Below, in pieces: positions 3,489 through 60,030 of a stretch of DNA of 60,030 bases. Source of the DNA: Escherichia coli (GTDB taxonomy: Bacteria > Pseudomonadota > Gammaproteobacteria > Enterobacterales > Enterobacteriaceae); NCBI RefSeq assembly GCF_003334405.1, contig NZ_QOWM01000020.1, one strand, 5' to 3'. The notes beneath the pieces are model-generated. The model saw nothing but the letters and a program-made list of their open reading frames with translations. It did not search any database and was not told where the DNA came from. Within the stretch, counting starts at the first letter, position 1, and every line of letters begins with the position of its first letter. The position numbers and the translations under genes are program-made.

Positions 3489-4598
<1,110 letters not shown>

Positions 4599-13921: not shown

Positions 13922-15223
13922 ATGTTCAATTTTGCAGTCAGCCGCGAAAGCCTGTTATCAGGATTTCAGTGGTTTTTCTTTATTTTTTGCAACACGGTTG
14001 TGGTTCCTCCTACGCTACTTTCTGCTTTTCAGTTGCCGCAAAGTAGCCTGCTTACGCTCACGCAATATGCTTTTCTTGCTACCGCACTGGCCTGCTTCGC
14101 TCAGGCGTTTTGCGGTCATCGTCGCGCTATTATGGAAGGGCCAGGTGGCCTGTGGTGGGGAACCATCCTTACTATCACCCTTGGTGAAGCATCGCGCGGG
14201 ACACCGATCAACGATATCGCCACCAGCCTGGCAGTGGGGATTGCACTCTCCGGCGTGCTGACGATGTTGATTGGTTTTAGCGGATTAGGCCATCGCCTGG
14301 CACGGTTATTTACGCCGTCGGTGATGGTCTTGTTTATGTTGATGCTGGGCGCGCAGCTGACCACTATCTTTTTCAAAGGTATGCTCGGGCTGCCGTTTGG
14401 CATAGCCGACCCGAATTTTAAAATTCAGTTACCGCCGTTCGCGCTCTCGGTGGCGGTGATGTGCCTGGTACTGGCGATGATTATCTTCCTGCCGCAACGT
14501 TTTGCCCGTTATGGCCTGCTGGTCGGCACCATAACCGGCTGGTTGTTGTGGTACTTTTGCTTTCCTTCTTCGCACTCGCTCTCCGGTGAGTTGCACTGGC
14601 AGTGGTTCCCGCTCGGCAGTGGCGGTGCTTTGTCGCCGGGAATTATTCTGACGGCGGTGATTACAGGTCTGGTAAATATCAGCAATACCTACGGTGCGAT
14701 TCGGGGCACGGATGTTTTTTATCCGCAGCAGGGCGCAGGGAATACGCGTTATCGTCGTAGCTTTGTGGCGACCGGATTTATGACGCTGATAACCGTACCG
14801 CTGGCGGTAATTCCATTTTCACCGTTTGTTTCATCCATTGGTTTATTAACCCAGACTGGCGATTACACGCGGCGTTCGTTTATTTATGGCAGCGTTATTT
14901 GCCTGCTGGTGGCGCTGGTTCCTGCACTCACGCGACTGTTTTGCAGTATCCCTTTACCCGTGAGTAGTGCGGTCATGCTGGTTTCTTATCTGCCTTTACT
15001 CTTTTCCGCGCTGGTGTTTAGCCAGCAAATAACGTTTACCGCTCGCAATATTTATCGACTCGCATTGCCGTTATTTGTCGGCATATTTTTAATGGCATTA
15101 CCGCCTGTGTATCTGCAAGACCTTCCATTAACGCTTCGTCCTCTGCTCAGTAACGGCTTATTGGTCGGGATTTTACTGGCTGTTCTTATGGATAACCTTA
15201 TTCCGTGGGAACGCATCGAATAA
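13922..15223 (+). CDS. ybbY: Putative purine/uracil permease (NCS2-like membrane protein)
   Basis: ~433 aa polytopic membrane protein; ATG at 13922 (track ORF uses GTG 13916). Confidence 0.85.
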   Translation: MFNFAVSRESLLSGFQWFFFIFCNTVVVPPTLLSAFQLPQSSLLTLTQYAFLATALACFAQAFCGHRRAIMEGPGGLWWGTILTITLGEASRGTPINDIATSLAVGIALSGVLTMLIGFSGLGHRLARLFTPSVMVLFMLMLGAQLTTIFFKGMLGLPFGIADPNFKIQLPPFALSVAVMCLVLAMIIFLPQRFARYGLLVGTITGWLLWYFCFPSSHSLSGELHWQWFPLGSGGALSPGIILTAVITGLVNISNTYGAIRGTDVFYPQQGAGNTRYRRSFVATGFMTLITVPLAVIPFSPFVSSIGLLTQTGDYTRRSFIYGSVICLLVALVPALTRLFCSIPLPVSSAVMLVSYLPLLFSALVFSQQITFTARNIYRLALPLFVGIFLMALPPVYLQDLPLTLRPLLSNGLLVGILLAVLMDNLIPWERIE

Positions 15224-15244
15224 TTTGTTGAAAAAGGATTGATA

Positions 15245-16390
15245 ATGAAGATTGTCATTGCGCCAGACTCTTTTAAAGAGAGCTTAAGTGCAGAAAAATG
15301 TTGTCAGGCAATTAAAGCCGGGTTTTCGACCCTCTTTCCCGATGCGAACTATATCTGTTTGCCGATAGCGGATGGCGGCGAAGGGACGGTGGATGCGATG
15401 GTCGCCGCGACGGGCGGCAACATCGTGACGCTTGAAGTCTGCGGGCCGATGGGCGAAAAAGTGAATGCTTTTTATGGCCTTACCGGCGACGGGAAAACGG
15501 CGGTGATTGAGATGGCGGCAGCAAGTGGCCTGATGCTGGTCGCGCCTGAAAAGCGTAATCCGTTGCTGGCCTCCAGTTTTGGTACGGGGGAGTTAATTCG
15601 TCATGCGCTGGATAACGACATTCGCCATATTATTCTCGGCATTGGCGGCAGTGCGACGGTCGACGGCGGTATGGGCATGGCGCAGGCGCTCGGTGTGCGT
15701 TTCCTTGATGCCGACGGTCAGGCGCTGGCGGCAAACGGTGGTAATTTAGCGCGCGTGGCAAGCATTGAGATGGATGAATGCGATCCGCGTCTGGCGAATT
15801 GCCATATTGAAGTAGCATGTGACGTTGATAACCCGCTGGTAGGGGCACGCGGCGCGGCGGCGGTGTTTGGCCCGCAAAAAGGGGCAACGCCGGAGATGGT
15901 CGAAGAACTTGAACAGGGGCTGCAAAATTACGCCCGTGTTTTACAACAGCAAACTGAAATTAATGTCTGCCAGATGGCGGGCGGCGGCGCTGCGGGCGGT
16001 ATGGGTATTGCGGCGGCGGTATTTCTCAATGCGGATATTAAACCGGGCATTGAAATTGTGTTGAATGCGGTCAATCTTGCGCAGGCAGTGCAGGGCGCAG
16101 CACTGGTGATTACCGGGGAAGGGCGCATCGACTCGCAAACGGCAGGCGGTAAAGCGCCGCTGGGTGTGGCGTCGGTGGCGAAGCAGTTTAATGTACCGGT
16201 GATTGGGATTGCTGGCGTATTGGGTGATGGCGTGGAAGTGGTGCACCAGTACGGCATTGACGCGGTATTCAGCATTTTGCCTCGTCTGGCACCTTTAGCC
16301 GAAGTGCTCGCCAGCGGTGAAACCAATCTCTTCAACAGCGCGCGAAATATTGCCTGCGCCATTAAAATAGGTCAGGGAATTAAAAACTAA
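15245..16390 (+). CDS. glxK: Glycerate kinase II
   Basis: ~381 aa, [14 protein letters not shown] start. Confidence 0.9.
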
Positions 16391-16439
16391 CCCTTACCTT
16401 TAAAGCGGATGCGATTTATATCGCATAAGAGTGCAGTAC

Positions 16440-16550
16440 TCATGCCGGATGCGGCATGAGTACCATATCCTTCCTGAAAATCGCGCAAATTCTATATATT
16501 GCAGAGATCATGTAGGCCTGATAAGCGAAGCGCATCAGGCAATGTTACAA
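16440..16550. repeat. REP (repetitive extragenic palindrome) elements
   Basis: REP-type palindromes (GCCGGATGCGGC; GTAGGCCTGATAAGCG...CGCATCAGGCA) between convergent glxK and allE. Confidence 0.7.
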
Positions 16551-16617
16551 AAAAAGCCACGGTATAAACCGTGGCAAAATCCAACATAGCTAAAAATAAT
16601 CAGGCGAGTGGTATGAC

Positions 16618-17403
16618 TTAAATCTCTACGTCGCGGTTACAATCTTTCGAGTAAATATAGCTGAACGCTTCACCACGCCCTACACCATAACCAGCCTGTA
16701 AAGAATAAGCGCCCATAAAGATGTAATCGCCTTTTTTCACCGGGATCCAGTTATTGTCGAGGTTATAAACCCCCTGACCGGAAAGAATATAGGCACCGTG
16801 TTCCTGAACGTGTGTTTCGATATAACCGTGGCTGGCACCTGGTGCAAAAGAGAGGATATGCATGTTCATATCAAAACCTAACTCTTTGGGCAGAAAATCC
16901 AGCAGAATAACATCGTCCATGCCTTCATAATGAATGCGTTCCAGTTCGCTGGCATTGCCAGAAACCAGCCACGGTGCATAGCCTTCTACCGGAACATAGC
17001 GGCGCTTATATAAAAAGATTTGGCTGTCTTCGGCCTGGGCGTTAACAAACGTCATTAAGGAGCCTGGCGGGCAATAAAGATAGCCACCTTCGCTTAAGGC
17101 AAATGTTTTGCCTTCGGCTTTGGCAGTGATATTTCCAGAGATCACATACAGGAACGTTTCAATGCCTTCGCCACCGAAGCCCTGTTGGTTGCCACCGTTT
17201 TGATGCAGTGTGACCAGATAATCAACAAAAGAGGCACCCAGCTTTGGCGTGGAGAGGATTGTCGCGTCACAATTTTCAAAGCCCGGAATAATATTTTTTA
17301 CCAGACCATCCGGGGTTAACAGTGCGAAATTACCGTGTTTAACAATCGCACGGTTAGCCAGTAAATCTTCGCGGTAACCGGTGACGTTATTTAAATATCC
17401 CAT
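16618..17403 (-). CDS. allE: (S)-ureidoglycine aminohydrolase, bicupin
   Basis: 261 aa; synteny. Confidence 0.9.
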   Translation of the reverse strand: MGYLNNVTGYREDLLANRAIVKHGNFALLTPDGLVKNIIPGFENCDATILSTPKLGASFVDYLVTLHQNGGNQQGFGGEGIETFLYVISGNITAKAEGKTFALSEGGYLYCPPGSLMTFVNAQAEDSQIFLYKRRYVPVEGYAPWLVSGNASELERIHYEGMDDVILLDFLPKELGFDMNMHILSFAPGASHGYIETHVQEHGAYILSGQGVYNLDNNWIPVKKGDYIFMGAYSLQAGYGVGRGEAFSYIYSKDCNRDVEI

Positions 17404-17413
17404 TTATGACTCC

Positions 17414-18649
17414 TTATTTCTGCCAGGCAAGTTGATAAAGCATGAGTGCCAACGTTTTGACCCCTTCGGCAAGGTCGGTAATATTGGTGCGTTCCGCCGG
17501 GTTATGGCTGATCCCGTTGATGCTGGGGATAAAAATCATGCAGGTTGGTACGCGAGGCGCGAAAATTTGCGCGTCGTGCCCGGCACCACTGTGCATCACC
17601 CGGTAATTCAGTTTTTCTCTTTCACACAATTCTGTCAGGGTGGCGACCAGCTCCTTATTCATCGGCACGGGTTCTTCGTCCATCCATAAATCGATATCAA
17701 TACCAATGTCCATTTCATCGCAAATCGCCCGCATGTCGTTTTCTAACTGTTGGGTGAAATCGCGCAGCACGGCAGCGTCGGTATGACGACAATCAATGGT
17801 GAACGTGGTTTTACCCGGCACCACATTTACCGTATTCGGGCGCGGCTCTACTTTGCCAAAGGTCAGAACCAGCGGATCGCCCATCCTTTTCGCTTTTTCG
17901 ACCGACTGATGGCAAATGCGACTGAAAGCGTAAACTGTATCACGACGATAACCCATCGGCGTGGTGCCTGCATGGTTTGATTCGCCGTTCAGCGTTACCG
18001 TATAACGACGCTGCCCGACAATTGCATTCACCACGCCAATTGATTGCCCATTACTTTCCAGCACACAGCCCTGTTCAATATGCAGTTCAACAAAGGCTTT
18101 AATATCCTGACGCGGAGTTAGTGGGGCGTTCGGAAGAGTAAATCCGCAAGCCTTCATCGCATCGACAAAACTATTTCCTTTGGCATCACAGATATTCCGC
18201 ACGTCGTCAGGATTCGCCAGCCCAAAAATATTTTTACTGCCCCAGAAGACATACGGGAAGCGGCTGCCTTCTTCTTCTGCCATCGCCACCACTTCGACCG
18301 TACGTAGCGGCGCGCCGTATTGCGTTTTCAGCCAGTCAATTGCCAGCCACGCCGCCAGCGCGCCGAATTGCCCGTCAAGGTTACCGCCGTTAACCACGGT
18401 ATCGATATGCGAACCGCTCAGAACCACTTCCTGTGGATATTCGGTGCCATTCAGGCGACCGTATAAATTCCCCACTTCATCGAAACGTGTTTCCAGCCCG
18501 CTTGCTGCCATTCTTTTTTTAAATTGCTGCTGGGTTTCCAGCCATTCCGGCGAATAAAGTAAACGGGTCATCCCACCCGCTGGGTCAGCGCCAAAAGAGG
18601 AAAGCCAGGGCAGCGTTTCTTCTATAGCTTGACGGAAATGTGTAATCAT
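17414..18649 (-). CDS. allC: Allantoate amidohydrolase (M20 peptidase family)
   Basis: ~411 aa from MITHFRQAIE. Confidence 0.9.
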   Translation of the reverse strand: MITHFRQAIEETLPWLSSFGADPAGGMTRLLYSPEWLETQQQFKKRMAASGLETRFDEVGNLYGRLNGTEYPQEVVLSGSHIDTVVNGGNLDGQFGALAAWLAIDWLKTQYGAPLRTVEVVAMAEEEGSRFPYVFWGSKNIFGLANPDDVRNICDAKGNSFVDAMKACGFTLPNAPLTPRQDIKAFVELHIEQGCVLESNGQSIGVVNAIVGQRRYTVTLNGESNHAGTTPMGYRRDTVYAFSRICHQSVEKAKRMGDPLVLTFGKVEPRPNTVNVVPGKTTFTIDCRHTDAAVLRDFTQQLENDMRAICDEMDIGIDIDLWMDEEPVPMNKELVATLTELCEREKLNYRVMHSGAGHDAQIFAPRVPTCMIFIPSINGISHNPAERTNITDLAEGVKTLALMLYQLAWQK

Positions 18650-21713: not shown

Positions 21714-22973
21714 ATGTTTACATCAGTGGCGCAAGCCAATGCTGCGGTTATCGAACAAATTCGTCGCGCTCGTCCACACTGGCTGGATGTGCAACCGGCT
21801 TCTTCACTTATCAGCGAACTAAACCAGGGCAAAACACTGCTTCACGCCGGGCCGCCAATGCGCTGGCAGGAGATGACCGGACCTATGAAAGGGGCGTGCG
21901 TGGGCGCATGTCTGTTCGAAGGTTGGGCGAAAGATGAAGCGCAGGCGCTGGCAATACTGGAGCAGGGGGAAGTGAACTTCATTCCTTGTCACCATGTGAA
22001 TGCCGTCGGGCCAATGGGCGGTATTACTTCTGCCAGTATGCCGATGCTGGTGGTCGAGAACGTGACCGACGGCAACCGGGCGTACTGCAACCTCAACGAA
22101 GGTATCGGCAAAGTGATGCGTTTTGGCGCTTATGGCGAAGATGTCCTGACTCGCCATCGCTGGATGCGCGATGTGTTAATGCCAGTATTAAGCGCGGCGC
22201 TGGGGCGCATGGAGCACGGTATCGATCTCACGGCGATGATGGCGCAGGGCATTACCATGGGCGATGAGTTCCATCAACGCAATATTGCTTCCTCAGCACT
22301 GTTAATGCGTACGCTGGCCCCACAAATTGCTCGCCTCGATCATGATAAACAGCACATTGCGGAAGTGATGGATTTCCTCAGCGTGACCGATCAGTTCTTC
22401 CTCAACCTCGCGATGGCCTACTGCAAGGCGGCGATGGATGCTGGCGCGATGATCCGCGCAGGCAGCATCGTTACGGCTATGACCCGCAACGGCAATATGT
22501 TCGGGATTCGGGTAAGCGGGCTGGGTGAACGCTGGTTTACTGCGCCTGTAAACACTCCGCAAGGTCTGTTTTTCACCGGCTTCTCGCAGGAGCAGGCGAA
22601 CCCGGATATGGGCGATAGCGCGATTACCGAAACCTTTGGTATCGGAGGTGCGGCAATGATCGCAGCGCCTGGCGTAACGCGCTTTGTCGGTGCGGGTGGC
22701 ATGGAAGCGGCCAGGGCGGTATCTGAAGAGATGGCGGAAATTTACCTTGAACGCAATATGCAGTTGCAGATCCCAAGCTGGGATTTTCAGGGCGCCTGCC
22801 TGGGACTGGACATTCGTCGCGTGGTAGAAACCGGTATTACGCCACTCATCAATACCGGTATCGCCCATAAAGAGGCGGGGATCGGGCAGATTGGCGCAGG
22901 CACCGTGCGGGCACCGCTGGCGTGTTTTGAACAGGCGCTGGAAGCACTGGCTGAAAGCATGGGGATTGGTTGA
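21714..22973 (+). CDS. ylbE: DUF1116-family protein, uninterrupted reading frame
   Basis: 419-aa continuous ORF; I recall it as frameshifted in MG1655. Confidence 0.85.
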
Positions 22974-38095: not shown

Positions 38096-38172
38096 GCGCC
38101 CTTAGCTCAGTTGGATAGAGCAACGACCTTCTAAGTCGTGGGCCGCAGGTTCGAATCCTGCAGGGCGCGCCA
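38096..38172 (+). tRNA. argU: tRNA-Arg (anticodon UCU)
   Basis: 77-nt cloverleaf GCGCCCTTAGCTCAGTTGGATAGAGC...CTTCTAAGTCG...GGTTCGAATCCTGCAGGGCGCGCCA with anticodon loop cuUCUaa and encoded CCA. Confidence 0.9.
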
Positions 38173-38217
38173 TTTCTTCCTCATTTATGCCCGTCTTATC
38201 CGTTTCCGCTTTGCCCT

Positions 38218-38979
38218 TCACCACATCACTTTTTGTCGCTGTTTGGCGAGATAATTCAACGGTGTCAGGCCGTAAAACGCCTTAAAAACAGAGATAAAGT
38301 ACGACGTGCTGCTATAGCCACATAATTGCGCCACCTGAGTGATATTTTTGTTATCCATCAATAACATCTGTACGGCGTAACGCATACGACACTCTGTGAC
38401 AATCTGGCTATAGCTGGTATTTTCGTTTTTTAATTTCTTTTTGAGCAGGCTGGGGCTTAAACATAGCGAACTGGCGACAATTCGCAGATTCCAGTAATGC
38501 TGAATATCGCTTTGAATAATGCGGCAGACGCTGTCGCGGACGCTGCTGCGTAAGATATACATCAGTAGGGCAATAAACCGCGATTGCTCAAGAAAGTTAG
38601 ACAATACGGTAAAAAGCAATGCGCGCGTCAACTCCGCTTCGCAGGGTCTGCTGGGTTGCTGCTTGCTGTGGTTGGCGGCTAGCCGGAACACTTCCGGTGT
38701 ACGGCTATGACAAGCGATAACCGGGGTTGCCAGCCGCGACCAGGGCTTTACACAGGTTAAGTTCTTATTTAAAAACAACAGATAATCGTTGATGATGTTA
38801 CGGTTGATGTGGGTGATTAATACGTGATTTAACGTTGAGAGTTCAATGACGTTATTGTTGCACGCGAAGGCGGCCAGGTAGTTTTTCGGAAGGGTAAACG
38901 TAGCATGGTTATTGACGCTTACCTCTACCTCTTTTTCGGTCAGGATCACCACGCAAGGTTCACTGCTGCTCAATTGCAT
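38218..38979 (-). CDS. envY: AraC-family transcriptional regulator (porin thermoregulation)
   Basis: 253 aa; C-terminal AraC-type HTH. Confidence 0.85.
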   Translation of the reverse strand: MQLSSSEPCVVILTEKEVEVSVNNHATFTLPKNYLAAFACNNNVIELSTLNHVLITHINRNIINDYLLFLNKNLTCVKPWSRLATPVIACHSRTPEVFRLAANHSKQQPSRPCEAELTRALLFTVLSNFLEQSRFIALLMYILRSSVRDSVCRIIQSDIQHYWNLRIVASSLCLSPSLLKKKLKNENTSYSQIVTECRMRYAVQMLLMDNKNITQVAQLCGYSSTSYFISVFKAFYGLTPLNYLAKQRQKVMW

Positions 38980-59338: not shown

Positions 59339-59639
59339 TTATGTTGGCGTTTTCTATTCAGTATAGAAGTCGGAGCGGCTGGGCGAGATGCGGAAGTTCT
59401 GGAATGTTTCTTTTTTTTGGTGATGGTGAACTGATGGTGCCTGAAGCAATTTGGCTACTTTTGCAATGTGACAAGTTATGGCAGTGCTGACTGGTGGCGA
59501 AGAATTTTGACGATTGAGTCATGCAGAAAAAAACGGGTTCAGCTTCAGTTGATTAAATGAGGAGTGAGAAGTCCGAAACAGGACTCACTGTATAAATAAA
59601 CAGCTATTTTGTTGAGGAAGGGTAAGATAACGGCGGGTG

Positions 59640-59705
59640 CCTGAAGCTTTCCGGTTTCAGGTTTACTCTGAGGTCTGGAAAGATGAAGCCCCAGGAGATA
59701 TTTCT
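59640..59705 (-). ncRNA. sokE: Putative Sok-type antisense RNA (sokE), position approximate
   Basis: Inferred only from hok/sok architecture (antisense to the mok leader/start); no independent signal seen in the sequence. Confidence 0.2.
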
Positions 59706-59781
59706 ATCAACCCTGGGGCTGCCACTCCAAACCCGAACAATTTGGATGGTAGTCCCTTCTTCGCATGGAGGCAATATAAAC

Positions 59782-59934
59782 ATGCTGACGAAATATGCCC
59801 TTGCGGCAGTCATAGTGCTGTGTTTAACGGTGCTGGGATTTACGCTTCTGGTCGGAGACTCGCTGTGTGAGTTTACGGTGAAGGAACGTAATATTGAGTT
59901 TAAGGCTGTTCTCGCTTACGAACCGAAGAAGTAG
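59782..59934 (+). CDS. hokE: Hok-family type I toxin (small membrane peptide)
   Basis: 50-aa [53 protein letters not shown]; the in-frame upstream extension (59683) corresponds to the mok-like leader ORF. Confidence 0.85.
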
Positions 59935-59955
59935 CCGTTGTGCGGGGAGTAATCC

Positions 59956-60030
59956 CATAAGCGCTAACTTAAGGGTTGTGGTATTACGCCTGATATGATT
60001 TAACGTGCCGATGAATTACTCTCACGATAA
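59956..60030 (+). mobile_element. insL: IS186 left end (partial; element continues beyond the window), including the first codons of its transposase
   Basis: CATAAGCGCTAACTTAAGGGTTG... terminal sequence, then ATG AAT TAC TCT CAC GAT AA (MNYSHD...) at 60011. Confidence 0.65.

Follow-up and report, generated by a model that had tools for sequence, protein, structure and literature searches.

The window analysed here, a 60,030-nt stretch of Escherichia coli DNA (contig NZ_QOWM01000020.1 of assembly GCF_003334405.1), ends within the first nucleotides of an insertion sequence that follows the type I toxin–antitoxin locus hokE/sokE. Features at this end of the window are as follows.

59635–59790, plus strand: hokE mRNA leader, overlapped by the antisense RNA SokE (Rfam RF01794, matched along the whole model at 84.4 bits and E 8e-19, where the gathering score is 59)
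59679–59738, minus strand: sokE antisense RNA (antitoxin), 60 nt, an exact match to MG1655 sokE placed by coordinate transfer (NC_000913.3, b4835)
59782–59934, plus strand: hokE, an intact open reading frame for a 50-aa type I toxin (WP_000956455.1 in matching genomes; Pfam HOK_GEF, PF01848)
59942–59956, plus strand: GCGGGG AGTAAT CCC, read directly, which is the left half of the target hairpin and includes the left copy of the duplicated IS186 target (flanking repeat GGGAGTAATCCC in MG1655)
59956–59978, plus strand: IS186 left terminal inverted repeat, 23 nt, the sole exact match in the window, whose right-hand partner is found in MG1655, NCTC9041 and ST540
59956–60030, plus strand: first 75 nt of IS186, 100% identical to MG1655 IS186 and ended by the window edge (IS186B/insL2 on the K-12 map)
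60011–60030, plus strand: start of the IS186 transposase gene (ATG at 60011; translation MNYSHD...)

The hokE product matches PF01848 over residues 5–46 of its 50 amino acids (E 9e-8), and the locus shares with hok/sok of plasmid R1 a 50-aa Hok protein, an antisense RNA over the leader and a GC hairpin after the stop codon. Unlike its plasmid counterpart, it lies on the chromosome, and IS186 breaks it ahead of the 3′ regulatory segment. The GC-rich target hairpin starts 8 nt past the hokE stop codon, and IS186 itself begins 21 nt after that codon, in the 3′ untranslated region and in the same direction as hokE. In MG1655, NCTC9041 and ST540, NCBI annotates a pseudogene (‘frameshifted hypothetical protein’) on the minus strand of the interval corresponding to 59545–59813, antisense to both the leader and the start of hokE; overlapping as it does a structured hok/sok RNA, this pseudogene is probably an annotation artefact.

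The window closes in the order ...GAAGAAGTAG CCGTTGTGCGGGGAGTAATCC CATAAGCGCTAACTTAAGGGTTG TGGTATTACGCCTGATATGATTTAACGTGCCG ATGAATTACTCTCACGATAA. Positions 59956–59978 read directly as CATAAGCGCTAACTTAAGGGTTG, the exact 23-nt IS186 terminal inverted repeat, which has a single match in the window even when three mismatches are allowed and none in 100 shuffles. All of the IS186 sequence present is identical to K-12 IS186B (75/75 nt), and the transposase CDS start of MG1655, at position 4182 of the compared MG1655 stretch, maps to window position 60011. The original prediction, that the last 75 bp are the left end of IS186 and carry the first codons of its transposase (MNYSHD), is thereby borne out on both counts, the translation of 60011–60030 agreeing with the codons proposed. 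When the 201-nt tail was compared by megablast with 5426 complete E. coli genomes, it gave full-length, 100% identical matches taking in both hokE and a gene labelled ‘IS4-like element IS421 family transposase’, IS186/IS421 being the NCBI name for IS186, a member of the IS4 family; at least 80% of the query lay in one place in 1740 of the 5426 genomes. The shortness of the segment alone might raise a suspicion of chance similarity or of another insertion sequence, but this explanation is refuted by the full identity of the 75 nt to the MG1655 element, by the shuffles and by about 1700 genomes that share the identical junction with an IS186/IS421 transposase annotation. The copy is, moreover, an already known and ordinary one: the curated annotation of the K-12 reference NC_000913.3 lists ‘insertion sequence:IS186B’ with insL2 (b0582) between hokE (b4415) and entD.

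Near-identical genomes indicate how the sequence continues beyond the window edge. The closest, NCTC9041, agrees with the last 25 kb of the window at 100% identity and is colinear with window positions 1–44542 (5 mismatches, no gap), and many other genomes match the last 25 kb with one or two differences. Against E. coli K-12 MG1655, the last 4201 nt of the window show no mismatch: the 75 nt of the element and the 4.1 kb upstream agree at 100% with the K-12 copy IS186B (insL2, b0582; NC_000913.3 608007–609351) and its flank, and the insertion point, the orientation and the upstream hokE are shared, as is entD downstream in the near-identical genomes. Both NCTC9041 and MG1655 continue as a complete IS186 of 1339 nt (measured between the outer inverted-repeat ends), beyond which lie GGAGTAATCCCCGCATATCC... 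and then the convergent entD gene. The right inverted repeat, which falls outside the window, is present in MG1655, NCTC9041 and ST540, and a target duplication is seen in MG1655 and NCTC9041, where in the latter GGAGTAATCC stands on both sides of the element. Over the 1339 nt, no difference separates the NCTC9041 and ST540 copies from each other or from the two compared K-12 copies, IS186A and IS186B. The complete element encodes a 370-aa transposase (WP_001300563.1), of which the window holds the first 6 codons only; the full NCTC9041 protein scores 133 bits against NF033592 (NCBIfam IS4 family transposase; cut-off 115) and contains the Pfam domain DDE_Tnp_1 (PF01609, E 4e-26).

Because the window stops after 75 nt of IS186, and IS186-associated rearrangements do occur, as in the BL21 cysH–iap copy with its non-matching flanks described below, the window genome might instead carry a solo end or a truncated remnant. 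Yet NCTC9041 and MG1655 both possess the complete 1339-bp element with its target duplication and with entD beyond it, and we consider a remnant highly improbable. That a complete IS186 lies in the GC hairpin 3′ of hokE, in the direction of hokE and as the same insertion found in K-12, is by our estimate nearly certain; its consequence for the locus is one that we infer below. Under this complete-IS186 reading, the window genome would be expected to continue through the right inverted repeat into GGAGTAATCCCCGC and then entD.

Immediately before the element, positions 59940–59955 read GTGCGGGGAGTAATCC, as had been quoted at the outset in support of an IS186 preference for GC-rich targets. The preference is confirmed in a more specific form than ‘GC-rich’, in that the site is a perfect GGGG(N6)CCCC. 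Rebuilt from the two flanks and one copy of the duplication, the empty site is TGCGGGGAGTAATCCCCGCA, a perfect palindromic GGGG(N6)CCCC with the hairpin GGGG-AGTAAT-CCCC. The empty site GGGGAGTAATCCCC occurs in other genomes, and 2899 genomes covered the whole 301-nt query built around it, Combat13F7 at 100% identity. The left half-motif, GGGG AGTAAT CCC at 59944–59956, is by itself not enriched in the window (5 observed against 8.4 expected); since the half-motif alone is not rare, the evidence lies in the full site together with the duplication.

Part of the palindromic target recurs in the tips of the element, CCC-ATAAGCGC...GCGCTTAT-GGG. For this reason the longest direct repeat around the MG1655 element is 12 nt (GGGAGTAATCCC), and the left boundary of IS186 is ambiguous, falling anywhere from 59953 to 59957. 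The start coordinate 59956 is good to within about 3 nt, and its difference from the curated NC_000913.3 ‘IS186B’ start, which maps to 59953, is likewise a matter of definition.

GGGG(N6/N7)CCCC is the published target motif of IS186, which inserts there in either orientation (Lee et al. 2016, PMC5009759). Of 59 new IS186 insertions, nearly all fell at such sites, and the K-12 genome holds only 19 GGGG(N6)CCCC sites, some of which were struck many times (PMC5009759). The IS186 transposase recognises the palindromic GGGG(N6/7)CCCC and duplicates the core of the motif, and the perfect GGGG(N6)CCCC site formed by the hairpin 3′ of hokE accounts for where the element lies. Another published IS186 site, from 2001 work as cited in PMC3446290 and PMC6925257, offers a parallel: the target rule is likewise GGGG(N6/7)CCCC, and insertion is recurrent and in either orientation. 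According to the same accounts, promoter activity is lost at that site, whereas the hokE insertion lies in a 3′ untranslated region.

The possible effect on hokE can be approached from the uninterrupted mRNA rebuilt in silico. Here GCGGGGAGUAAUCCCCGC forms a stable hairpin. A 7-nt complement of the mRNA 5′ end (AGGCACC versus GGUGCCU) occurs just once, 31 nt past the insertion point, and a long GC stem-loop follows AGGCACC. In plasmid R1, the full-length hok mRNA is kept stable and silent by a 3′ fold-back-inhibition (fbi) element, which pairs with the mRNA 5′ end. The rebuilt hokE transcript resembles that of R1 in having a 3′ segment complementary to its 5′ end, and this complementarity makes AGGCACC the likely fbi element. 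No 3′ fold-back-inhibition element is present within the window, the sole candidate, AGGCACC, being on the far side of IS186. The insertion would therefore part the hokE mRNA from its 3′ portion, comprising the 5′-complementary segment and the terminal stem-loop; cut in this way, the transcript could not take its stable, translationally silent full-length form, and the toxin–antitoxin locus would be functionally crippled despite an intact reading frame.

Minimum-free-energy folds of the rebuilt hokE mRNA did not contain the proposed 5′/3′ pairing: in one truncation the 5′ end paired with other downstream segments, and in a longer one with its own leader. We therefore infer the consequence for the locus from the complementarity and from known hok architecture. 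A promoter and terminator scan of the MG1655 locus and element found no promoter-like site and two terminator-like sites, none of the latter on the plus strand in the left part of IS186.

In K-12, hokA, hokC and hokE have reportedly been inactivated by IS150 or IS186 insertions just downstream of their reading frames. For gef/hokC, disruption of the fbi element by IS186 is a published reading, and for that gene the likely effect of IS186 on a hok mRNA has already been discussed in the literature (PMC3562002). The same source reports that gef/hokC carrying IS186 is still transcribed and still regulated by its antisense RNA, so that ‘inactivated’ may overstate the effect on hokE. This persistence of expression also bears on a second explanation, in which the element is complete and its position reflects target preference only, the insertion being neutral because hokE regulation is not materially changed or because the locus was already non-functional. 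Such neutrality would fit the site itself, a perfect copy of a rare motif that is repeatedly struck in mutation-accumulation lines without selection (PMC5009759), as well as the occurrence of both orientations at hokE. It is harder to reconcile with an insertion that physically takes the 5′-complementary segment and the 3′ stem-loop off the transcript, or with the finding that hok/sok genes of E. coli and Klebsiella are enriched near hotspots of mobile-element insertion, which its authors read as possibly adaptive disruption (bioRxiv 10.1101/527788). We regard a neutral insertion as a serious possibility, though somewhat short of an even one.

Across the 5426 complete E. coli genomes, the hokE site was found in three states.

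IS186 in the window orientation: 1740 genomes by junction count, of which up to 49 are possibly the paralogue, or about 1640 by a longer query, a figure from an evenly spaced sample of its matches
IS186 inverted at the same point: about 280 genomes
Empty site: about 3400–3600 genomes

The inverted-junction query matched 840 genomes, a number that we rejected as a count of inverted hokE insertions. In an evenly spaced sample its matches fell into two classes, true hokE at 97.9% identity or above (about 280) and about 561 records of an 88.7–89% identical ‘Hok/Gef family protein’ paralogue with an IS186 of its own. Compared base by base, ST540 (NZ_CP007391.1, 2027–3365 of the examined stretch) carries IS186 inverted at exactly the same point; its element, read as the reverse complement, shows no difference from the K-12 copy, and one substitution is present in the right copy of the duplication (GGAGCAATCC). 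The two orientations imply a minimum of two hits on the hokE site, one in each, and the number may be higher. The window-orientation copy stands mostly on a flank haplotype identical to that of the window, and also on flanks 98.8% and 97.0% identical.

Several further rearrangements were seen around this small locus. Combat13F7 (NZ_CP019245.1, 10–1379 of the examined stretch) has an empty IS186 site whose flanks agree with the window at 100%, but directly ahead of its hokE stands an IS150, so that this locus has been struck by another insertion sequence as well. In REL606 (NC_012967.1) and other B-type genomes, about 300 records as estimated from an evenly spaced sample, the match to the window begins only near 59710; ahead of the hokE leader (window about 59600–59710) they differ from it by an insertion or deletion. 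Among empty-site genomes, about 4 of 30 evenly spaced rows had an intact target followed, about 80 nt on and before entD, by diverging sequence, which suggests another rearrangement or insertion in the hokE–entD spacer.

Two other hok paralogues are also associated with IS186. K-12 IS186A (NC_000913.3 15387–16731; 591–1929 within the examined 14800–17600) sits about 20 nt after the hokC stop codon in an equivalent GC hairpin, GGGG-ATCACT-CCCC. This identical element at hokC/gef has been interpreted as removing the fbi element (PMC3562002); it differs from the hokE copy in its locus and in being inverted relative to the hok gene, with the right IS end facing hokC. In the cysH–iap interval of BL21 (NZ_CP053601.1, 2450–4257 of the examined stretch), a third hok paralogue, WP_000956460.1, is followed by IS186 and then directly by a CRISPR array, with no cas genes annotated between the element and the array. 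At this paralogue in B strains, IS186 lies directly against the left half of a GC-rich motif equivalent to that of hokE. The flanks of the BL21 element are unmatched, GGGGGTAAAACC on the left and GGGTTTTTCCCC on the right, and it is thus not a simple insertion; it looks like the product of an IS186-associated deletion or recombination. The BL21-type left junction is common to about 560 records.

Taken with both orientations at hokE, the hokC and cysH–iap cases form the basis for a broader proposal, that the conserved GC hairpin after hok genes is a recurrent landing site for IS186 across paralogous chromosomal loci and that its occupancy, in over a third of genomes at hokE, goes beyond target preference and reflects either selection for silencing the chromosomal hok toxins or a safe harbour in which the element is maintained. 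We think this proposal unlikely as a whole, and the idea of a landing pad or of silencing is largely anticipated in the literature.

It had further been suggested that the IS186 copy, together with the absence of DLP12 and an intact ylbE, might help to place the strain lineage. Two features elsewhere in the window bear on this.

21714–22973, plus strand: ylbE, an intact 419-aa open reading frame, annotated as a DUF1116 protein in the colinear NCTC9041 genome
38096–38172: argU, tRNA-Arg(tct), the sole tRNA in the window

By the colinear NCTC9041 annotation, argU is directly followed by envY (window 38096–38979 for the two), then ybcH and nfrA, with no prophage after argU and with appY and ompT absent. 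DLP12 is therefore missing, as had been claimed, envY coming straight after argU in place of the K-12 prophage with its appY and ompT genes. The claim for ylbE also held, its reading frame being uninterrupted, unlike the K-12 pseudogene. The window genome is accordingly not K-12: it differs from MG1655 in lacking DLP12 after argU and in its intact ylbE, and its best match is NCTC9041. As a lineage marker, however, the insertion proved only partly useful. Roughly one in three complete E. coli genomes has its junction in the window orientation, with K-12, B strains and ATCC 8739 among them, which makes the marker a coarse one; the site is also occupied by inverted copies, the insertion stands on at least three flank haplotypes, and a marker of this kind is at risk of recurrence.

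Beyond correct annotation, in which the hokE locus should be described as disrupted and its reading frame as intact, and beyond its use as a coarse, recurrence-prone marker, the insertion matters little. The hokE copy of IS186 is also a substrate from which IS-mediated deletions can run towards the ent/fep genes, and ‘hokE_large’ deletions have been reported in evolved B strains (PMC4557228). At the opposite end of the window, which is the rhsD end, two 221-nt segments (143–363 and 1339–1559), each about 86% identical to the NCTC9041 counterpart of the other, form an internal repeat of the Rhs region.
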